The notes beneath the pieces are model-generated. The model was not told the origin of the DNA. It saw only the letters and a program-made list of their open reading frames with translations, and ran no database searches. A DNA stretch of 61,299 nt, the filler included, from Sphacelaria rigidula (taxonomy: Eukaryota): NCBI GenBank assembly GCA_964200075.2. It is 6 parts of 6 records of this genome, joined end to end, with 100 filler letters (N's around TTAATTAATTAA, not from the genome) between each part and the next. Parts side by side here need not be neighbours in the genome. Positions count along the whole stretch, not along the records: positions 20,470 to 30,602 come from CAXNAA020007063.1; 5 more parts are not named here. One strand, written 5' to 3'. Shown here piece after piece: positions 1 to 51,167 of the stretch. Position 1 is the first letter of the stretch. Every line of letters begins with the position of its first letter. Position numbers and translations under genes: made by a program.

Positions 1-3000
1 GTTCCGTGTAACTGATGGATTGCCCAAATGCCATATGTACCTTGATGATGCGGTGTGCCACGACTCCACACCGGCCGAACACGTCGAACAGTTGGCATCA
101 TTCTTCAATCGGTTTGAACAACACAACTTGAAACTCGCACCCTCCAAATCCCGCATTGGCGCCACGAAGATTGAGTTCTTGGGTCATTGCATCACCCCCG
201 AAGGTCGTAGCCCAAACCTCGACAAGGTCGCCGCACTCTCCGATATGCCCATGCCACGGGACATTTCTCAACTGCGTTCCTTGTTGGGAGGTCTAAGCTA
301 CTACAGATAATACTTGCCAAATGTTGCCCAAGGGCTAAAACCCCTCACCACCCTCCTCAAAAAAGGGGTGAAATTTGTGTTCACATTGGAAATGGAAAAA
401 ACCGTCCGCCGCCTCCTCGACACCCTTTCGCGCCCGCCGATTCTCGTCTTCCCCGACTGGTCGGCCGCGGAGCAGGGTTCCCGCCCTTTCCGGCTCCACA
501 CAGATTCTTCCAAAATTGGGTTTGGCTGCACATTAGAACAAGAGCAAGTCGATGCTGCTGTTTGTCCCACTGTCTATCTGAGTCGCACCACTTTTCCGAA
601 TGAACAGAATTGGTCTGTCATGGAACAAGAGGCCGGCGCAGTTGTTTGGGGCGTGCGACGTCTGCGTCGGTATTCGTATGACATCCCGTTTTTGATTTTT
701 ACCGATCATACGTCTTTGGAAAGCCTTGCCAAAATGGCGGAACACAACGCTAGGGCCCAACGCTGGTTCGAAATCCTGTCGTCTTACAACTTTCAACTGA
801 AGTACCGCACAGGTCCCCAGAATGCAAACGCCGACTTCCTGTCACGCTTGCCCACACCAGCTCAATGTATCGATGAATCCGCCATGGGACGTATCACCAA
901 TCCCACCGAAGACATTGTATATTTCATAAGCAGGAATGGGCATAGGGGTCTCTACACACCACTTTCAGATAGAAACGCCGGCTTTAGGCATGGGTGGGCT
1001 GACGACCACAGTCCACGCATCAGTCCTAGGCAGCTTGCAACCTCAATCGTTGTACTCAGTTTGGAATGGACTGTCTACGAATACTGTTGGCTATGATCAT
1101 TTTCGTGCAACTGGCCAGCTCATGGTTTTCGCAGCAGGTGTAGAACCGTCCTTTGCTGACTCCGTCTTACCAGTTCAACTTCGAGATTTGATTTCGAGTA
1201 GGACTCATGGACGGCGGACCGCCGAAACGGCCACCAAATTCGCCGTATCCGGTCCTGACCTTCCTCCCCCTGCCCCCACCACAGTCCCCGATGGTTTTCT
1301 TGCGCCCCCGCAGCCTCCGCGACGCAAGGCCCCCAAAAAATCGACCCCGACCATGCCGCCCCTGCCAACCATAGCCGAAACCACGGCTGTGCCCCCCTCC
1401 AGTGGTGATGATATTGCAAACACCACCACAACACCCTCCACGCTAATCGACGCAGGAGTAGACGTTCACGTTCCGTCTGAGAGTACACCAACTGGTAGGC
1501 TCACCCTTGATTCCGAAATCACCGCTTCGTGCAGACTCCGCCCCGAACCGACCCCACACGAAGTCGACGCTTCAACAGATGGTGCATTCAAGGAACGCTT
1601 GACTCTCTTCTCCCACGCCGATTGGGCCCGGGAACAACAGGCAGAACCTGCTTGTAAATCAGCTATCCAATATCTATCTAAAGCTTGTCCATATCCATTC
1701 TCAGAAACTGATTTTCTTTGCCGGTCGGGAATCTCAAAGCGCCCACACAGGATGAAGTTACTGAACTTTCAAGGAAAGGTATGCTACATACGGATGATGA
1801 TGGTATAGTTCTGTTTGTTCGCCGGCCCACAGCAGCCCTCCCCAGGGGGAAACCTACAAGTCGACATGCCCGCTTGCTAGGTGATGAACACGTCCGCATC
1901 TACGTCCCGATGCTACTGCGCCCATGGGTTCTACACGAATGCCATTCACAGACATCGACTCATTTAGGCGCCATGAGGACCTCCCAGATGTTGAAACGTT
2001 TGCATTGGTGGATTTGTATGGATCAATCTTGTCGTTGGTGGGTGAGGCGTTGTGTTTTTTTTGTCAGGCACGAAAAAACTTCTCGTCAAACTGTTCGTTG
2101 GCCGATTGTTTCCATGTCACTCCCAAACGGGCCTGGTGAAGTAGTTTCGTGGGACTATTTTGGTCCTTTGCCCCTGACGGATAGTGGAAATAAGTATATT
2201 TTGTTGTTTACGGATAGGTTTAGTCGACATGCGATGATGCACGCCGCTCCCCCCAGTAGTTATACCGCGGAAGGTACCGCCAACATCCTTGTCTACATGT
2301 ACATCCCACTGTGGGGTGTGCCCAAACGCTTACTGTCTGACAACGGCCCGCATTTTTCAGGCAAACTTTCAGCCGCCGTCAGTGACCTTTTGGGTGCCCA
2401 TCGCATTTTTACTAGTTCATATCACCCCTCCACCAATGGTGGAACGGAACGAGTGAGCCATACGATGGCACAGATGCTTGCTGCTGTAGCAAATGAGAGA
2501 CAGATGGACTGGGATCTACACCTGCCCCTTGTCCAGATGAACTACAACAATTCAGTCAATGTCGCTACGGGATTGTCGCCGAATGACATTCATATTGGAC
2601 GCATGCCTAGGTTACCTTTAACGGTATTCGAACGCCAAAATACAGGTGGTCATCAGAGTCTGGATTGTGATGTTGCAGAGTATCATTTGTCGGTTAGCAA
2701 TCGTCTTCGTCTTGCACATGAAATGGTACGAGAACAGAACCAAATCAACTTGGCCAAGGTGGCCAGGGCGAACTCGATGTTGGATGATGTGGTGCATAAC
2801 CGCCCGGTGTGGAAGGTAGGCCAATGGGCATGGGTGTATAACGATGTGAAGACCATGAATACAGGGGCTAGCTCGAAATCATCATCTTTGGATAAAGTGT
2901 TGAAGGCGACCCTATCCTTGAATTGGACTGATCCTTGGGAAATTTTAGCTGTTGGTCCAAGCGCTACCGCACCCGACAAGAGTCCGGTGGGAGCGAAAAC

Positions 3001-3790
3001 TTTTGTTTTTAGATTTTCCCACGGATGAACCTGGTTTGAAACTGAAAAATCGCGTCTCGATGCTACGATGCAAACCGTGTATCCCTCCTCATGACTCCTC
3101 TGACATGCCTAAACAACTGCCGGTAGGGCTTAGCCAGTATGTGTTGACCAAGTATGCGATCAAAACTCCGCCGTATCATATGACGGTCGAGGATGCGGAC
3201 GCACCCCTGGAACGCGTTGAGATAGATAGGATTTCGGGTCATCAACTGGTTCGCGGTCGTGGAGGTAAGATAGCGGTAATGTATCAAACACATTGGAAGG
3301 GTATCATGCGTGTTACATAGGAGCGTGAGGTTGATTTGCGTCATTTTCGTCGGGAAATATTGCTGTACTGGGCAGGAGATACCGTCCAACACCGCCCGTT
3401 GAATAAGAGATATCGGGCGATGCCCCAGGGAGCTGCCGTTCGGGAACTGGCGCGTGAACACTCCGCGCGGTTTGTTGTGACAGGATATAGCCTTCTTTCG
3501 CGTTTACAATACGTGCAGTGTTTTCACGGAAAACGATTGCCGAAAGGGGCGTATTTTTGGTATAAGGTCTTGGATTCACTGCGGCGGTTGGGTAAGATTC
3601 ATTTGGTCGATCCTGCATCTGACAACTCCTACACTATCTGTTTCCTTGATGACCCGAGCCCCCTTAAGATTCGCTTGGATGATACGTACTACACCGAGGA
3701 GCCGACCGCTCGGAGGGGATCCTAGTGCCTCCAACGACACGACCAAGGCGAATTCGAAACAGCCGTTCTACGGAACACGGACACCGCTTG
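1..3790 (+). mobile_element. Ty3/Gypsy LTR retrotransposon pol, decayed (RT C-terminal half, RNase H, integrase, chromodomain, Tudor-like tail); 5' part outside the scaffold
   Basis: YLDD at ~38; IEFLGH and LRSLLGGLSYYR (RT); TDSSKIGFG, EQNWSVMEQEAGAVVW and FTDH (RNase H); HECH..H..C zinc finger, WDYFGP, SDNGPHF and NGGTERV (DDE integrase). The RT-RH-IN order identifies Gypsy. Stops at 308, 3318 and 3723 plus several frameshifts. Confidence 0.95.
3216..3340 (+). other. Chromodomain at integrase C-terminus (chromovirus-like), interrupted by TGG>TAG
   Basis: VEIDRISGHQLVRGRGGKIAVMYQTHWKGIMRVT*EREVDL matches the chromo pattern xEVExI..H....G...Y..KWKG....TWE...L. Confidence 0.7.
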
Positions 3791-10135: not shown

Positions 10136-10235
10136 NNNNNNNNNNNNNNNNNNNNNNNNNNNNNNNNNNNNNNNNNNNNTTAATTAATTAANNNNNNNNN
10201 NNNNNNNNNNNNNNNNNNNNNNNNNNNNNNNNNNN
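10136..10235. other. Artificial scaffold linker N44-TTAATTAATTAA-N44
   Basis: Identical 100-bp spacer with stops in all six frames; recurs five times. Confidence 0.99.
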
Positions 10236-20369: not shown

Positions 20370-20469
20370 NNNNNNNNNNNNNNNNNNNNNNNNNNNNNNN
20401 NNNNNNNNNNNNNTTAATTAATTAANNNNNNNNNNNNNNNNNNNNNNNNNNNNNNNNNNNNNNNNNNNN
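20370..20469. other. Artificial scaffold linker
   Basis: N44-TTAATTAATTAA-N44. Confidence 0.99.
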
Positions 20470-23760: not shown

Positions 23761-24463
23761 AAAATGTTATAGTACATGCCCACCAACGACAAAACGGGGA
23801 ATATGCTAACTGTACTCCAACATCTAGCACTGGGCTAGGGATTGAGTTTCAAAGTTGGAATGTCCTGATATTTTAATGAGTAGTTCATAGCTTTAGAAGC
23901 CCCTCAAGGTGAAACGATCCAGGACAAGGTGTGCAACCCCTACAGAGGCGTGACTCTCCACCGAATTCAAGTTTCATCAGATTCAAATACCCACGACCAA
24001 CTTCAATCACATTACTTACAATTATCTAATCGATCTCAACAACTAAGCCGTTCATCATTGCATCCACCCAGTGTTGCTCATCACTGCCTCCGGACGGGGA
24101 CTTGTACATAATTTTCATACTACAGTGTTCAACACAACACACCTTGCATACCATCTAACTCGATTTCCTAGACAACATGTGCAATCACTCGAAACGCTCC
24201 CCTTTCGTTTGTCTGTTTCTATCGGCCATACAGAAGGCCAAAAGGCCAGGGCATGCTCCTCGTCAGGATTGATCGAGTCCTCGATCACTCGACTTCCTTT
24301 GTTGTTGATACATATCGATGTTATTCTTTTCCATCACGATTTTTCTTTCCCTCAGCTGTAGTGTAGTCGGTGGCGCTGTATTCCTCGCTTGTTCCCTTTC
24401 ATGCGCTGCTGCACGGGTCTCGTTTGCCGTTGTAGTGGAAAGATTTCTTGTCAGCTCTCTGTC

Positions 24464-24836
24464 CTAAGGTTCGAGTTCTGAAAGGTCCCACACTGGACCG
24501 ATCTGGCCGCAGCCTGCACGACCATGATTGACCAGACCTGGGCAGTCGATTTCGTCTTGTGCGTCGTTCGCTGGGCCGTTTCCGCATCGGATGCCGTTGT
24601 AAAGAGGTCGACCGCTAGAATCAGGACCGGGTTCTAGGAGATCGAAGAGTTCTTTGATAGTCCTGGGGCCGAGTGGTGTGTCCACTTCCACGGTGCCAAT
24701 GCCGTGGTCGAATGTACTTTGCATATAGCACCTGCTGCCTACCGAGTAGCTGTCAGCCCAACTGTCGCGTGGATTAGCACCTACGACGTCGATGATCTTG
24801 ACGATGTCCGGGGAGAACGCATCAGCCAGTGTGTCA
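24464..24836 (-). CDS. Exon 5 (last) of the secreted WSC-domain gene; unnamed Cys/Gly/Asp-rich domain
   Basis: Open frame DTLADAFSPDIVKIIDVVGANPRDSWADSYSVGSRCYMQSTFDHGIG...RPLYNGIRCGNGP...CPG...GCGQIGPVWDLSELEP*; CTAAT branch point, AAG acceptor, phase 2 matches exon 4. Confidence 0.8.
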
Positions 24837-25612
24837 CTTCGTGCAGGAGTCGGGGGCGACGTCGGAAATACACATTAGTCCAACGCGCGATTTCCCACAA
24901 ACGCGCGGATCGACAACGATCTTTTTTTCAGTCTTGAAAACTCGAAACGATAGCAATACAAGATGCTCTCGGCATCAACCGGTATCCTTCAATCACACGC
25001 AAGCGCGTACATCCGCGACCGAGAGCTCAATCCCGCAAAACCTCGTGCAACAGCGGCGTAGCACTCTCAAGCCTTGACTTAAACATCAATGTTTTGACTC
25101 GAGATGCCGTTATTAGCTAGGCAGTTGGGATCTAGACTGCCAAGAAGACGGCCCTGCTACTGTGATCGTCCGTATGTAGCGCTACGAAAAATCGACACGT
25201 GTTTGTTTTGTGTAGGGTGGTCATACCTGGTGGACGTCTCGGAAACCGGAGATGGGGAGGGTATAGTCAGTCCGCTGCACAGGAGAAGTAGAAGAGAACA
25301 CCAGGAAGGAGGTTGGGGTTGGTAGTCTACAACAGAAGTACACGGAATTGTCTTCACCAGACCGGATAACGAACTCGTCCGCCTCTAAAAACCCTGAGAG
25401 TGCAACTACATAGTGGAGCCCATGCGGTGTTTCGCAAGGATGGTGAACGCTTGCGGTGGGTAAGACACACCATATATGTTCCAGATGAGTAATTTTGAGC
25501 GGAGGACCCCCGAACATTACCGCTTGTCGACAACAGATCGCGCATCTTTGTCCCTGCTTATAATTGAATATCAAGTCAACAATATATTTGAATCGTTCAG
25601 CTGAAACCTCAC

Positions 25613-25677
25613 CTCGAAGCGTCGGTCGACTCGATACTGTACAGGTTCAGGGCATCATTGCCGCCGCACATCTCGCT
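25613..25677 (-). CDS. Exon 4 of the WSC-domain gene (SEMCGGNDALNLYSIESTDAS)
   Basis: WSC C-terminal CGG....LY motif; CACAG acceptor; AG|GTGAGG donor. Confidence 0.9.
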
Positions 25678-27004: not shown

Positions 27005-27151
27005 CCCGTTGCCCGCGCAAGCGTAGTTGCATTCCGCTCCTTCTCCGTGGCGGTCATACTCCACCACCATCTCGGTTGCGCACCAGCATTCTACCCCAAA
27101 TTGGGTACCAAAATACGGGGCACCTAAGCTAAGGCAGTAGTCGAAGCAAAA
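27005..27151 (-). CDS. Exon 3 of the WSC-domain gene (FCFDYCLSLGAPYFGTQFGVECWCATEMVVEYDRHGEGAECNYACAGNG)
   Basis: WSC core C...C....YFGTQ.G.ECWC...C...C.G; TAG acceptor, GTATGA donor, 147 nt, phase 0/0. Confidence 0.93.
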
Positions 27152-27568: not shown

Positions 27569-27659
27569 CTGGGCGTTCATGTTCTCGTCATCAGTCAGCT
27601 TATGACCCAAGATGCGGTCTTGCTTGCTGTCCTTGAAACATCCCACTTCCGTGTAAGAG
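27569..27659 (-). CDS. Exon 2 of the WSC-domain gene (N-SYTEVGCFKDSKQDRILGHKLTDDENMNAQ)
   Basis: WSC N-terminal GCF.D....R.L motif; TGCAG acceptor; CAG|GTAAGC donor. Confidence 0.93.
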
Positions 27660-28396: not shown

Positions 28397-28509
28397 TTAG
28401 CAAGTTTGCGGAGGTACCCCCGGGAGACAGCCTCAGCACCGGTCTGGTACGCCAGAAGAGAAGCACCCGTGATAACCGCCGAGGTCGTACTGAATCGGAC
28501 TCCCACCAT
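28397..28509 (-). CDS. First coding exon of the WSC-domain gene: signal peptide and propeptide (MVGVRFSTTSAVITGASLLAYQTGAEAVSRGYLRKLA)
   Basis: ATG at 28509; hydrophobic stretch ending in an AEA (A-x-A) site; AA|GTGAGT donor, phase 2, joins exon 2 to form AAC. The five exons total 789 nt = 262 aa + stop. Confidence 0.8.
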
Positions 28510-30602: not shown

Positions 30603-30702
30603 NNNNNNNNNNNNNNNNNNNNNNNNNNNNNNNNNNNNNNNNNNNNTTAATTAATTAANNNNNNNNNNNNNNNNNNNNNNNNNNNNNNNNNNNNNNNNNN
30701 NN
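30603..30702. other. Artificial scaffold linker
   Basis: N44-TTAATTAATTAA-N44. Confidence 0.99.
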
Positions 30703-30995: not shown

Positions 30996-31159
30996 AATTA
31001 GTTCAAGGGAGGAGATGAGTTGATCCTTTGAAGCTGTTGGATTCGTTCCGACGAAGGGGGAGAAGATATAAAAAAAACCCAAAAAAACACGAAATACAGA
31101 AAAGAAGAGATGGAGCTCATTGAACGGCAGTACATATATTATCCCTTTCTTCACGGTAC

Positions 31160-31330
31160 CTGCATTTCGGCAATAGCAGTCTTGCCCATCGAGGCATAGC
31201 CGATCGCAAATCCTGCGATGCCCTGCTCGCACAGAGGGCTATTGAACACTCGGTCGGGGCCGAACTGCTCCCTCAGCCCAACAGTGCAGCGAAATACGCC
31301 CCCGAACGCCACGTCCTCGCCAAATGTTAT
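31160..31330 (-). CDS. BCKDHB: Branched-chain 2-oxoacid dehydrogenase E1 beta subunit, internal exon
   Basis: [57 protein letters not shown] closely matches BCKDH E1-beta; CAG acceptor, CAG|GTACCG donor, 171 nt; remaining exons lie beyond the scaffold end. Confidence 0.96.
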
Positions 31331-32003
31331 CTGACAATCGACGCAAGAGCACCACGGCGGATAGTAACAATTTAAGCGTACACCCACATACAGACACGTG
31401 TCGCTCGGTATTTTTCTTGCCCCCAAAGCGATGCGTTGAGACCGTTTCTCACGACTGGTTTTCGTTGGGGGGGGGGGGGGGGGGTTTGCATGCAACAGTC
31501 AGGGAAAGAAAAAATTATTCGGCCCCCCGGGGGGAAGGGATTTTTGGGCAGTGTTTNNNNNNNNNNTCTGGCGCGTCGCCTTCCTTCTTTTCCCCCCCCC
31601 CAGCGTGGGTTGGTCAGGCCTTCTTTGTCTGGGGGTTGGGGGGGGGGGGGGGGGGGGGGGAGTTTGCATGCAACAGTCAGGAGAAGAACTAATTCTGCGT
31701 CCCACCGGTGAGAAGAGTATTTTGCGCAGTGTTTATCAAAAGCGGTCAATATATTCGAGGGAAATCCCAAGAACTACTGATGTACAGTAGTTTGACGCGT
31801 GTCTTGTGCATGAACGCCTGCAACCAAAAATCTTTTTCCATCGGCGCCGTCGTAGCTCAGCCTTTGCCTCCCCCGCCCCTCCCAAGCTAGCCCGTATTCA
31901 ATTTGATGATTACTTCTTGGCTCGGCCAATTGTAGCTAGAACAAAAGCCTGTTTGCGTTGACAACGAAAAAACCTCAACGCTTCGATCAGTCAATTATCT
32001 CAC

Positions 32004-33554: not shown

Positions 33555-35126
33555 GATTCAGAACCGGGGCCAATCAAAATTCGGAAGAGTATTTTGCAGG
33601 CCATATACCAGCCCAGGTATGGTACTTGTGATTTGAATTTTTTGGTGGAAAATCGCTAGGACACATGAAAAAAAAAAGGGATACGCTGATTATTTTCAAT
33701 TTTGCATAATTCAAGGACGTTTGAGTATAGTGAAGACCATTGTTGTCACGAGAACTTGTACTCACCGATAAAATAAAAAAAGAAAGAAAGCCAACTGTTT
33801 GTTTTCAGCATGCCGTTGCGATTCTCTATCATCATGTTCAAATCGCCATTCTCAGAAATGAGCTGAAAAACTGAGAAAAGGGCCAAAGACAAAGTTCATT
33901 TTTCACCAACAAGCCTTCAAGGCATGAAAAAAGTGAAAAAAGAATGAAAAAAAATATCAAAGAGCTGAAGCTCTTTGGTTGTTGTGCCCTAGAGCTTCTT
34001 TATACAAGATCGCAAAGCATAACTCTCACAAAAGGGATGCAAAATCCAGATTCGACACATTTCGTTCCTCTACTCGTGAGATCTAGAGTTCAGTGTGGAA
34101 TCTTGTGTGCGCCATATCTCGAGATGGATAAGGAAGCAGGGGACGGTGAGGGTATCGATAGTTTGCCCGTGCTCCAGGGAATGTCCACACCGAAAGTCAT
34201 CATCATCCGTCGTATGTACCGTACGGGGTTTGATGTAGACTCTAGTCGAGGGCGCAATCTCCGTTCGGTACAGGAATAACTCGACACGGCGTTTCAAGAG
34301 GAAAAAATTTGCCCGGGCTTCTGAGCAGATGGGCACCTTCCCCTTGATTGGACATTTTCAAAGGTGTTCGGATCACGGCCCAAATCGTGTGTCGGTGAGA
34401 TTTGGCGGTGAGGGCTTGAACCCGCCTTCAGGTTGGCCCAGCTCGTTAGCGTGCTCTACTGCATTTATTCCCCGCACCCAGGAGGCGCTCCCCCGACTAT
34501 TCAAATATACTGTACATTTTCTTGATTTTCATCTTCATCTTCTCTTTCAGGGACAGACCGTGCATCAGCAGGTTGCTTTGTTCAGTTCACAGTGATATAC
34601 GCCTGACACCGGGCTGATGCGGAAAACTGGGAGGAAAGCGGTTCTTATGGCTGGCCTAGCTCGTACTGTACACGAATCATTAGTGACTCGACGTGAAGAG
34701 GTAAACGACGTCTGCTGGAGCAAGACCACATTCTTGGCATGTCGCGAATTGCCATTCAAGATACATGCCAATCACTCTGCGCGTGTGTAGACAAGAGATG
34801 TGGAGTGAATCGTTGTGTGCTTGGCGTTTTTGTTGCTCAGTTCGCATTCGAGAACCGTTTCCCACCGTTTCTCCTCGAGGATGCGTCAACGATGAAAAGG
34901 CTGCACGTTCTCCAGCGACCACCGAAACTGTTACTCCCCCGGTGACTCTGCTACTGCAAAAGCGGCGGACGGCGCCAAGCATCAGTGAAAGTGTCATTTT
35001 GATGCAAACAACACCTGCGGAGAGCGGGCGGGCGGGCGGCGAGGGGGGCAGGGGGGGGGGGGGGGTGCTGCTGTTCTACTANNNNNNNNNNCCCCCCCCC
35101 GCCCTCTCCGCGGTCCGACACACCCG

Positions 35127-40835: not shown

Positions 40836-40935
40836 NNNNNNNNNNNNNNNNNNNNNNNNNNNNNNNNNNNNNNNNNNNNTTAATTAATTAANNNNNNNNN
40901 NNNNNNNNNNNNNNNNNNNNNNNNNNNNNNNNNNN
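40836..40935. other. Artificial scaffold linker
   Basis: N44-TTAATTAATTAA-N44. Confidence 0.99.
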
Positions 40936-43449: not shown

Positions 43450-46400
43450 GCATGAACCAGCGTAGGCAAAAGAGTGCGTGGAAACGGAGAATAGCTCTCA
43501 AACGCCGGGTCAAATACCAGTAGGAAAAGGACATGGAAAAACGGAGGAAGAGGGGAAGGGAGAGACCAGCCAGGCGAGCCGCCAGGGCTCAGGCTCGCGC
43601 CCGTCGCACCACCGCAAGGGCAAAGTCTCGATCCAAAGAGCTGGTGGTGGCTACTTGGAATGTACGCACCATAGCCGAGAGAGGTTCCAACGGCACACAC
43701 CACGCCGAGGACCTCCTGCTTTTTGCATCCTAATACAACTGTGACTTCGTCGCCCTCCAAACAATCCGGCGCGGTGGACGAACAACCTTCCACGCACTGG
43801 CAGCAGGGTACATCGTTCACTGCAGTGGCCACTGCCATGGAGACGGGGGTAAACCGGGAATGCTCGGAGTCAGCCTCGCCATCAAGGAGTCTATCGCAAG
43901 CACGCTGCGCCCAGAAGCCATCACCCCCGATAACGTGAGTGGTAGGATCCCCAAGGTACGAGTTGCCTTCAGCCATAGAGTCGCAACAACCTTCATCGTA
44001 GGGTGTGCTCCTACTGAGACAGCACAAGGTTGTAGAAAAACCAAGTTCTGGAAAACCATCAGTAGTTCCATCGCTGAAGTGCCCACCAACGAGCACCTGA
44101 TACTCATGATGGATGACAATGCTCGTACCGGAAAAAGAGAAGGAGGAGGCATGGATGACGCTCGGGTATTGGGAGAAAATGGCAGAGAGACCCGGAATGA
44201 TAATGGTGGCCGCCTACTGAAGTGTGCTGCGGAACACAAAATGGCCATCACCAATACACTTTTTCTCACACCAATGCGCGGGGAAAACTCGATCGTATAC
44301 ACATATGCGGGACCGAAGGCCGAACACCGCTGGCGCCTGGAATACATCCTAGTACGTGAGCAAAACCACAGACTCGTCCAAAATGTCACTGTGCACCCCG
44401 AGATCAAGTCGGACCATCGTTTGGTCTCAGCCACCATCCGTCTCCTCGGACGCAACGCTCCCAATCGCCAACCGAAAGCGAGAGACAGGGTTAGGGGAGT
44501 GCGTTTCGACCGCAACGCCCTCGCATCCGACCGGCGCTGGAGAGCGAGTGTCTCCCAGGCCGTTGTCGCTAAGCTCCCGAATATCACAAATCACCCCGCA
44601 GTAATGGACATCAACGATATGGCATATACCTTCGTCGACGCCCTGCGACGGACGGCCACGGATACACTCCCTCGATGCCCCCAGGAAACCCCATCTGAAG
44701 GTTTCAGTGAGTCAACTCAAGCTCAGGATTGTCTTCGAAAGGCGTGGGATCTCAGGGAAAGTGTATGGAAGAATCTGCGAGCAAACCCGAAAGACGCTGC
44801 CGTGAAGAAGCACTGAAGGTACCGGACAAAGCGTTCAAGTAGGTGAAGAACGCTGAGCTGCAGAACTTCGTTCACGAGTTTACAGTCCGGATCGCGGAGT
44901 TTGTTAGCGAGAAGAATCAAGCAGGACTGTACCAGCATATTAAGTCCTTGGAACTGGAAGGGAAGAAGCAGAGCGGCTTAACTTACATCAGGAGCGCGAC
45001 TGGTGAGCTGTTGCGGGACATGCGAGCTATCCTTCAACGGTGGAAGGAATGGTTCGCAACACCGCTGAACGCAACCTCACCTACGATCGACCACTCTGTC
45101 ATCGATCTCATCGGAGAGCTGCCGAAACACACACCACTCGCTGCGGAGCCCTCGATGGAAGAAGTGAAGGAAGCGGTGGGCAAACTAGCGAACGGCAAGG
45201 CCGCTGGGACGGACAACATATGTGGCGAACTGTTGAAGCTCGGCCGCACCGAAGATTCTGCCATCCTCAAGTGCCTCCACGATATCGTGCTGATCCTGTG
45301 GCGTCAGGAAGTTGTGCCGTAAGAGACCATCATCAAGGCACTCTTCAAGAAGCAGGACCCGTACGAATACGACAACTACCGCGGTATTTCTCTCGGGTCC
45401 CACGCGGGCAAGGTAGTGCTCAAGATGGTTGCGACTCGCCTCAGTGCCTACTGTGAGTGGAAGGGAATCGTCCCAGAAGCGCAATGCGGTCTTCAACCTG
45501 ACCGTTCCGCAGTCGACATGATGTTCGTTGTACTTAGACTCCGAGAACTGGCCCGAGAGAAGAATCATCCTCTGTACGTGTGCTTCATCGACCTCCAAAA
45601 AGCATACGACTTAGTAGACCGCTCTCTTCTCTGGAAGGTTCTAGTGCACTACGGTGTACCCACCAAGGTAATTTCCATCACTCGCCAATTCCATGACGGC
45701 ATGCGGGCATGCGTTCGCCTGGACACCGGCGAGACATCTGAGTGGTTTAACGTGAACCAGGGCCTCCGCCAAGATTGTGTACTTTCCCCCGGTCTGTTCA
45801 ACATCTTTTTCGCGGTGATGATGACGGTATCGTTTGACCACTTCTCGATCAATAAAGCGGTGGTCCAGGATTTCATCCGAATCGCTGCAAGGGGCGGGAA
45901 AACCAAGGACGAGCTCAGCGAAGTGCTCTGGGCAATGCTATACGCCGACGACGCTGGAATCCCCTCGTGGTCTCGAGAGAGCCTGGCGAAGATCATGACG
46001 ACCATCGTCGAGGTCTATGCGGCGTTCGGCCTCCTCGTCGCGGAAAAGAAGACGGTCACCATGCGCATGCGCTCCCCGAACATGGAGACGGATACGATCG
46101 AAGTGGAGGCAGCGGGTCAAAGCTACAAGCAAGTTGAGTCGTTCTTCTACCTTGGCGAAAAAATAAGCAGCATCGGTGATGTCACTCCCGAGGTCCACAG
46201 CCGCATTGGCCAGGCCTGGACGTGCTTCTACAAATACAGCAAAGCGGTGTACGACAACCCGTACATCGCCCTCGCCACCAAGGTTTGTCTCCTGAAACTG
46301 AAGTGATGGAGGTGATGCTGTACGGCTGCGTGACCTGGACGATCGCACACGACACTTTCGGCGCGTCACGGGAGGCCCATTGAGGATTCCTGCTAAGGTG

Positions 46401-51067: not shown

Positions 51068-51167
51068 NNNNNNNNNNNNNNNNNNNNNNNNNNNNNNNNN
51101 NNNNNNNNNNNTTAATTAATTAANNNNNNNNNNNNNNNNNNNNNNNNNNNNNNNNNNNNNNNNNNNN
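51068..51167. other. Artificial scaffold linker
   Basis: N44-TTAATTAATTAA-N44. Confidence 0.99.

Follow-up and report, generated by a model that had tools for sequence, protein, structure and literature searches.

The brown alga Sphacelaria rigidula carries a gene in which a WSC domain is followed by a C-terminal domain that, as far as the searched libraries show, is an undescribed family, without a name or a visible solved fold. The gene lies on the minus strand of contig CAXNAA020007063.1, within a stretch of 61,299 nucleotides (nt) of assembly GCA_964200075.2 (the window, which designates here the whole stretch analysed). Relatives of the domain occur in bacteria, next to carbohydrate-binding modules (CBMs), as well as in other brown algae and in diatoms. 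We give about an even chance to the reading in which it is a bacterial extracellular module, putatively glycan-binding, that was horizontally acquired and fused to WSC.

The original prediction had placed at positions 24464..24775 a compact domain with a distinctive motif string and four Cys. Both are present in a minus-strand frame open over 136 amino acids (aa; 24467-24874), which contains the string ...SWADSYSVGSRCYMQSTFDHG...YNGIRCGNGPANDAQDEIDCPG...GCGQIGPVW..., with the four Cys in its core, and translates as ...NPRDSWADSYSVGSRCYMQSTFDHGIG...YNGIRCGNGPANDAQDEIDCPGLVNHGRAGCGQIGPVWDLSELEP before reaching a stop. A protein search returned P0001, a protein of 288 aa recorded as “unnamed protein product [Sphacelaria rigidula]”. 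Aligning P0001 to the window by tblastn yielded six blocks, and the exon junctions were then solved with GT-AG sites, resulting in six minus-strand exons separated by five introns, all GT-AG, the joined translation of which is identical to P0001 letter for letter (Table 1). The interval first proposed is located inside the last exon but stops short of its real limit, at 24836. P0001 is composed of a leader, a WSC domain, a linker and the C-terminal domain of about 120 aa. Its N-terminal half is a bona fide WSC domain (PF01822 at aa 43-123, profile positions 2-82 of 82, 60.7 bits for a gathering cut-off of 27.8, E = 1.6e-16). As had been anticipated, the unnamed domain is encoded by a single intron-free exon (exon 6), whereas WSC is split over exons 2-4. 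Moreover, it begins two residues past the intron 5 junction, i.e., the fusion to WSC coincides with an exon boundary, which agrees with the proposed shuffling onto a WSC module. The hydrophobic exon 1 would correspond to a signal peptide, and no transmembrane segment was found C-terminal of the unnamed domain in P0001; with WSC and the unnamed domain behind this leader, the protein would be a bivalent secreted wall protein of the alga. The gene's contig contains no further open reading frame (ORF) recognisable by Pfam.

The spliced form of the gene was found in transcript contigs from four public runs of one study, which bear the same organism label as the DNA records and are presumed to derive from RNA. 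Contigs of all four runs carry it, with about 4% nucleotide difference from the window. The exon joints 25274/25613, 25677/27005 and 27151/27569 are each seen in four of the four runs, intron 1 is joined near 27656/28397 in the spliced contigs, and a single contig of 1374 nt covers all six exons, while contigs run uninterrupted over exon 6 and the 3' part (24300-24836). Spliced contigs and an intron-bearing gene together indicate that the gene is real, spliced and algal, and not a bacterial contaminant. The intron 5 joint is located at 24836/25227 in three of the four runs, the fourth showing a loose end at 25227, so that exon 5 of the transcripts corresponds to 25227-25274 and is 30 nt shorter than annotated. 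The segment missing from the transcripts (25197-25226, minus strand) is the 3' end of the annotated exon 5 and encodes 10 linker residues, which points to an exon 5 donor that is either alternative or mis-annotated. Intron 5 (24822-25186) is itself covered by contigs of low depth (6-16, versus 100-550 on exons), suggesting that part of the RNA is unspliced or retains the intron, or that DNA was carried over.

The domain was expected to be uncharacterised, and none of the libraries searched (Pfam, NCBIfam, PDB sequences and folds) covers it. With the 136-aa frame as query, Pfam-A returned nothing up to E = 10, NCBIfam returned none at E ≤ 1 for P0001 and none over the domain in three other members, and the domain is left uncovered by any Pfam model in all 90 individually listed member proteins. 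Likewise, the family profile found nothing at E ≤ 10 among PDB sequences, and a search of the open-access literature with protein accessions, gene ids, motif strings and WSC or brown-alga topics returned nothing relevant on the domain. A phmmer match between PDB sequences of designed tetratricopeptide repeat proteins and our query (full-sequence E = 3.3e-5) was rejected: its E-value adds up 8-12 stretches, none above 4.3 bits or significant by itself, the family profile has no match, and the model is not a helical one.

Structure prediction followed the same trend. AlphaFold2 models of the window's domain (123 aa, alignment of 121 sequences) and of a stand-alone bacterial member, P0088 (133 sequences), are both confident, with a predicted local distance difference test (pLDDT) of 95.1 and 94.8, respectively, and a predicted template modelling score (pTM) of 0.88 for each. 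In both, short strands and helices follow one another in the same order and, according to DSSP, there are no other regular elements, hence little regular secondary structure and little beta-sheet. Foldseek against the PDB gave no match at E ≤ 1e-3 for either (best E = 2.9 and 2.5), and VIA-align gave none at Z ≥ 2 among 48,161 representative solved chains. By the same thresholds, neither model matches a solved CBM fold (beta-sandwich or beta-trefoil). In the ESM Atlas, there was no usable match for the window's domain and only chance-level scores of 0.78 for P0088. Phospholipase A2, expansin/DPBB and thrombospondin type-3 repeats, which the Cys/Asp/His motifs bring to mind, were discarded, as no solved chain matches the models. 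To judge from the models, no solved relative is visible, although a lacking match does not prove a new fold.

The family is nonetheless large. An exhaustive HMMER search of 1.84 billion representatives retrieved 475 proteins at E ≤ 1e-3, of which 375 still match at E ≤ 1e-10 and 82 at E ≤ 1e-30, the 475 representatives being clusters at 50% identity. In prokaryotes, a scan of one genome per species confirmed 162 stretches, in line with the marine bacterial homologs that had been predicted. Among the best 79 loci, which are the top-scoring half and not a random sample, 52 belong to Pseudomonadota, 18 to Myxococcota (Sandaracinaceae, Nannocystaceae), five to Actinomycetota (Acidimicrobiales), two to Chitinivibrionales and one to Bdellovibrionales. 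The Pseudomonadota include 27 loci of Granulosicoccaceae, along with Arenicella, Microbulbifer variabilis, M. echini, Cellvibrionaceae, Burkholderiales and Lysobacterales. These carriers are mostly marine, polysaccharide-associated lineages; bacteria of this kind are common on kelp surfaces, and Granulosicoccaceae and Microbulbifer live on seaweeds or degrade them. Viral contigs contributed three loci only.

On the eukaryotic side, named carriers are confined to brown algae (Sphacelaria, several Ectocarpus species, Pylaiella, Nemacystus and Cladosiphon) and to the diatoms Seminavis robusta and Epithemia clementina, the latter group having also been foreseen; the domain is present in one MMETSP transcript as well. 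The orthologs of Ectocarpus spp., Pylaiella, Nemacystus and Cladosiphon keep the layout of WSC plus domain, while the S. robusta protein (“expressed unknown protein”) has two copies of the domain and a hydrophobic tail. The last protein search revealed no further brown-algal order, but the tool needs shared words, so that absence elsewhere is not implied. Four metagenome contigs (L091, L092, L094, L100) show tblastn matches in which about 125 domain residues extend over 740-790 nt. These copies are probably intron-interrupted and would then represent environmental eukaryotic carriers with a split domain, unlike the single exon of brown algae. Besides, the label “oxt” is borne by an Ectocarpus siliculosus protein of 175 aa (CBN75093.1) that clusters at 90% with the WSC-plus-domain protein of Ectocarpus; our guess is that this label was probably carried over from a WSC-containing xylosyltransferase and does not describe the unnamed domain.

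Conservation was computed over 361 non-redundant copies and is given in P0001 numbering. The core motifs read WxDSYSV, FDH, YN(D)I(Q)CGNGPxN, DE, CPG and GCxxIGPxW, and the most conserved residues are W191, D193, S194, Y195, S196, C201, Y202, D208, H209, T218, G221, P236, Y244, N245, D246, Q248, C249, G250, N251, G252, P253, N255, D259, E260, C263, P264, G265, R266, G270, G273, C274, G278, P279 and W281. Five invariant aromatics (W191, Y195, Y202, Y244, W281) stand among polar and acidic residues, of which D193, D208, H209, D259 and E260, the candidate catalytic or metal ligands of the original prediction, are conserved in 96%, 94%, 90%, 94% and 99% of the non-brown copies, respectively. Sixteen columns are invariant across 78 bacterial host proteins and, together with the 475 matches, imply that the domain is no chance sequence. 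Positions 203 and 229 covary perfectly, with Cys at both in 314 copies, at neither in 47 and at only one in none, a pattern that we read as a third, dispensable disulfide. In brown algae, this Cys pair is replaced in every copy by M203 and either F or Y at 229, and outside the algal clade the M/F combination is found in a single protein, P0081. Finally, all brown-algal copies have L266, where 94% of the others have R.

The window's copy departs from the family at two further positions. Position 246 is D in 346 of the 361 copies and G in the window, and position 248 is Q in 349 copies and R in the window; D236 also replaces the usual G. The spliced contigs, which bear the same organism name, encode D246 and Q248 in all four runs, and over exon 6 they differ from the window by 10 non-synonymous and four synonymous codons. 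G246 and R248 may reflect a strain, allele or paralog difference, and the constraint on the window's copy may be relaxed or altered.

In bacteria, the domain behaves as a mobile module, found alone, in tandem arrays of two to four copies, or at either end of proteins with CBMs or glycoside hydrolase-like parts. A local profile detected 220 copies in 187 proteins: 161 have one copy, 21 two, three three and two four. Of the single copies, 70 lie at the C-terminus, 56 at the N-terminus and 23 inside the protein, while 12 make up essentially the whole of it. Partner domains, half of a check proposed for the bacterial homologs, were counted at Pfam E ≤ 1e-5. In 90 proteins, they are F5/8C (16), WSC (14), CBM6 (6), malectin (5) and DUF5060 (2), plus one protein each with GSDH and CBM60, with SGL, and with tyrosinase and PKD; 48 proteins are without any Pfam family. 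A further 97 proteins have CBM6 (10), CBM35_2 (7), F5/8C (5), malectin (5), Big_7 (3), DUF5060 (3), Collagen_bind_2 (3), DUF4832 (2) and a type IX secretion system (T9SS) tail (2), plus ricin-B, GH42, dockerin and Hint once each. As for 78 proteins from named bacterial genomes, the list comprises F5/8C (17), Big_7 (8), DUF5060 (6), Collagen_bind_2 (5), CBM35_2 (3) and CBM6 (2). One example is a Microbulbifer variabilis protein of 1101 aa, in which the domain follows an enzyme-like body made of DUF5060 and Collagen_bind_2. The other half of the check, the gene neighbourhood, was less telling: once ORFs overlapping the host gene were removed, nothing was conserved around the 79 loci, a LysR regulator being the commonest neighbour (nine loci) and all others appearing at most four times.

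A glycan-binding role is suggested by the mobile position of the domain, its tandem arrays, its CBM partners, its accessory place on enzyme-like proteins and the five invariant aromatics. The product of exon 6 would be a compact domain of about 100-120 aa, located outside the cell and held together by disulfides. In this mechanism, the aromatics W191, Y195, Y202, Y244 and W281 as well as the polar or acidic D193, D208, H209, N245, D246, Q248, N251, N255, D259 and E260 would bind the glycan, possibly with Ca2+, and the algal protein, having both WSC and the domain, would cross-link or sense wall polysaccharides.

Alternatively, the domain might be an enzyme of very small size (e.g., a hydrolase, lyase or esterase) with a polysaccharide or glycoconjugate as substrate and an Asp/His/Asp/Glu active site that CBM32, CBM6, malectin or WSC modules bring to its target. 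We regard this as possible, if doubtful. The 16 columns invariant in bacterial proteins from at least five phyla, along with the 90-99% conservation of the Asp, His and Glu residues in question, are what an active site would produce; moreover, the unnamed domain is in many proteins the only one that is not a known binding module, and 48 hosts out of 90 lack any Pfam family. Yet 26 of the 187 proteins are tandem arrays of two to four copies without other domains, which is typical of binding modules, and the domain is also found on bodies that are enzyme-like themselves (DUF5060/Collagen_bind_2, GSDH, SGL, GH42-like, DUF4832). As modelled, about 100 aa with little regular secondary structure would be small for an enzyme, and the models match no enzyme fold among solved chains.

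A role in protein–protein or cell-surface adhesion instead of glycan recognition, as in a dockerin/cohesin-like or adhesin module, perhaps Ca2+-dependent, seems unlikely to us. It would account for the cadherin-like, Big and dockerin domains present among the partners, for the acidic Asn/Asp/Gly-rich loop NDIQCGNGPANDAGDED, which we take to be comparable to Ca2+-binding loops, and for the diatom protein P0067, in which two copies and a hydrophobic C-terminal tail suggest surface display. It sits poorly with the dominance of CBMs among the partners, with a gene neighbourhood devoid of any recurring partner protein (79 loci) and with models that match no dockerin, cohesin or EGF/TSP3 fold.

Turning to the origin of the domain, that a single exon of 373 nt encodes it is, alone, no evidence of transfer. 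Two unrooted trees were computed from about 125 columns, one with FastTree (395 copies) and a quick one with IQ-TREE (LG+C20, 101 rows). In both, the brown-algal copies fall without exception into a single clade, of 21 rows (17 named rows, two with WSC and two short rows), supported at 97 and 98, respectively, and subtended by a stem of 0.39 in the IQ-TREE analysis. The rows nearest to this clade are P0075, P0081 and P0106 (support 85), which carry CBM6 and/or F5/8C. P0081 has an F5/8C domain and a lipobox-like leader (…LISC), from which it appears to be a bacterial lipoprotein, and P0075 has a bacterial-type signal peptide. A metagenome scan with P0081 did not recover its own contig (best match 46% over the whole protein), hence the bacterial origin of P0081 is argued from its lipobox-type leader and its architecture. 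Brown algae and their sisters are nested in a clade of 85 rows (support 96) with Myxococcota, Acidimicrobiales and bacterial-type proteins, while the diatom copies emerge elsewhere, among Gammaproteobacteria and malectin-fusion proteins. In an approximately unbiased (AU) test on a 44-row subset, forcing brown algae and diatoms into one clade was 35.6 log-likelihood units worse and was rejected (p-AU = 0.0095).

Nesting within bacterial sequences (98 in 96, unrooted), rejection of vertical descent and integration into the genome are therefore all observed, as horizontal acquisition had predicted. The M/F residues at 203/229, shared by brown algae and P0081, suggest that the donor already lacked the third disulfide. 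Since this shared loss adds to the nesting, to the AU test and to the greater diversity of the bacterial copies, transfer from bacterium to alga is favoured. In its most likely form, as far as sequences can tell its direction, the transfer would have taken place before the split between Sphacelariales and Ectocarpales, with one or more separate events for the diatoms. The predicted patchiness is also borne out, since bacterial homologs abound whereas the named eukaryotes are two groups that do not form one clade, a spread far from broadly vertical, and no characterised family turned up in the libraries searched. According to passages of a preprint (bioRxiv 10.1101/2024.02.19.579948), about 1% of brown-algal genes derive from horizontal gene transfer (HGT), mainly bacterial, carbohydrate and cell-wall functions being the most prevalent, a pattern that the unnamed domain fits, at least as set out in those passages.

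Conversely, the domain could be ancestral in stramenopiles, vertically inherited in ochrophytes and passed from algae to bacteria, the nesting being a rooting or long-branch artefact. The tree is indeed unrooted, both named eukaryotic groups are ochrophytes, and the Granulosicoccaceae, which hold 27 of the 79 loci, are alga-associated and would have had the opportunity to receive genes from algae. We nevertheless find this scenario improbable, considering that the joint clade it implies is rejected by the AU test, that bacterial copies span at least five phyla and are far more diverse in sequence and architecture, and that brown-algal copies are a single clade on a stem of 0.39. In addition, the ancestral-looking state with three disulfides is dominant in bacteria and present in diatoms, whereas the derived two-disulfide state of brown algae is common to only a few bacterial-type proteins. 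Finally, bacterial contamination or mis-assembly of exon 6, which the shortness of the contig (10,133 bp) and 63-66% identity to Myxococcota and Acidimicrobiales proteins might evoke, is practically excluded, for exon 6 closes a gene that has five GT-AG introns and encodes WSC in its other exons, spliced contigs from four runs join its six exons, and orthologs with the same layout exist in Ectocarpus spp., Pylaiella, Nemacystus and Cladosiphon.

Several points weigh against a horizontally acquired, glycan-binding module. The surroundings of the 79 bacterial loci point to no substrate, and no polysaccharide-utilisation context emerged from them. Such conservation as the domain shows (about 50% identity between phyla, 16 invariant columns) is seen more typically in an active or metal site than in most CBMs, and most hosts consist of binding modules plus this domain, which is also how a targeted small enzyme would look. 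Glycan binding is deduced from context, and the clustering of the conserved residues in space is presumptive. With G246, R248 and the brown-algal L266, the algal copy may work differently or be impaired. Regarding the trees, they have no root and draw on a short alignment of about 125 columns, the sister relation is supported at only 85% by the Shimodaira–Hasegawa-like approximate likelihood ratio test (SH-aLRT), the sisters are metagenomic sequences, and the clade submitted to the AU test was chosen after the first tree had been seen, even though it is the natural hypothesis of vertical descent.

Under the reading that we prefer, i.e., a bacterial glycan-binding module captured by an alga, an ancestor of brown algae (at least of Sphacelariales and Ectocarpales) would have taken the domain from a bacterium in which one of the three disulfides was already lost, and the domain would then have been joined to WSC at an exon boundary, yielding a secreted two-module cell-wall protein. 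A broader proposal, which we put forward tentatively as a realistic possibility, is that the domain has a new fold and founds a new carbohydrate-active family (a CBM or a minimal catalytic domain) serving as a tool common to both sides of the alga–bacterium interface: with it, bacteria such as Granulosicoccaceae and Microbulbifer would hold on to algal wall polymers or modify them, brown algae and diatoms would have captured it independently for walls of their own, and the two-disulfide/L266 state as well as G246/R248 would have retuned ligand specificity in particular lineages.

The rest of the window was also annotated (Table 1). Its six contigs, from 10,135 to 10,132 bp, are joined by spacers made of 44 N, TTAATTAATTAA and 44 N; the gene's contig occupies 20470-30602, and nothing across a spacer is a genomic neighbour. 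Retroelement remnants were found on two other contigs. On the contig next in the window, an exon-like ORF with a transketolase pyrimidine-binding domain is probably part of a gene of the 2-oxoacid dehydrogenase E1-beta type. C/G runs coding for poly-Pro beside the 10-N gaps 31557-31566 and 35082-35091 look like assembly-gap flanks.

Table 1. Features of the window, in window coordinates, with the gene under study listed first.
Feature	Position	Strand	Remark
Exon 1	28397..28509	-	start codon and hydrophobic N-terminal leader, aa 1-38
Exon 2	27569..27659	-	first part of WSC domain, aa 38-68
Exon 3	27005..27151	-	WSC core, aa 69-117
Exon 4	25613..25677	-	WSC end, aa 118-139
Exon 5 (annotated form)	25197..25274	-	Ser/Thr/Pro-rich linker, aa 139-165
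Exon 6	24464..24836	-	whole unnamed domain, aa 165-288, and stop codon (24464-24466)
Unnamed domain, family-profile envelope	24470..24832	-	aa 167-287, including N-terminal PDIVKIIDVxGxNP extension
Conserved core, W191 to W281	24488..24760	-	C201, C249, C263, C274; conservation table, 361 non-redundant copies
Codons 246-248, G-I-R (family D-I-Q)	24590..24598	-	conservation table and transcript contigs
3' untranslated region, at least this far	24300..24463	-	spliced contigs continue past stop codon
Spacers	10136-10235, 20370-20469, 30603-30702, 40836-40935, 51068-51167		
RT-RNase H, retroelement remnant	311-1093 (within 311-3025)	+	
Integrase zinc-binding and core domains, retroelement remnant	1712-3025	+	
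Reverse transcriptase RVT_1, retroelement remnant	45323-46303	+	on another contig
Exon-like ORF, transketolase pyrimidine-binding domain	31154-31498	-	E = 2.2e-10; contig next in window

Marine polysaccharide turnover and the attachment of microbes to seaweeds rely on protein modules, many of which are still without a name. Among them, the domain described here deserves attention as it is abundant (475 clusters), strongly conserved, confidently modelled without a solved match and located beside sugar-binding modules, so that a new family of binding modules or enzymes could be defined on it concretely and at low cost. For algal biology, it would document the joining of a bacterial domain to a WSC module that the alga already had, events of this sort being believed to have shaped the cell wall of brown algae.

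Compared to known systems, the domain resembles the bacterial CBMs (CBM32/F5-8C, CBM6, CBM35, malectin and ricin-B/CBM13) in its size of about 100-120 aa, its putatively extracellular location, its occurrence at either terminus, alone or in tandem, its free combination with binding modules and glycoside hydrolase-like bodies, and its conserved aromatic and polar residues. CBM32, CBM6, CBM35, malectin and ricin-B fold as beta-sandwiches or beta-trefoils. In contrast, the domain matches no Pfam CBM model, its conservation is much above the CBM norm, and its models, poor in beta-sheet, match none of the solved chains. Small Ca2+-dependent bacterial lectins such as LecB/PA-IIL, of about 115 aa and with acidic Asn/Asp-rich loops, offer in their sugar recognition a plausible analogy for the way the domain might act, but no more than an analogy, neither sequence nor fold of solved chains matching. 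Within brown algae, WSC-domain proteins are counted among the cell-wall proteins in part of PMC8307928, and five WSC orthogroups are described as expanded in passages of bioRxiv 10.1101/2024.02.19.579948. P0001 is akin to them through its N-terminal WSC half but differs in its C-terminal partner, which is a bacterial-type domain and neither a mannuronan C5-epimerase nor a transmembrane sensor tail. Last, it recalls the wall genes that brown algae acquired horizontally (PL41 and, possibly, ManC5-E and GT23), which are likewise bacterial-type, extracellular, carbohydrate-associated and present in several orders; yet those are enzymes of known families, whereas here a domain without a family is fused to a resident WSC rather than standing alone.

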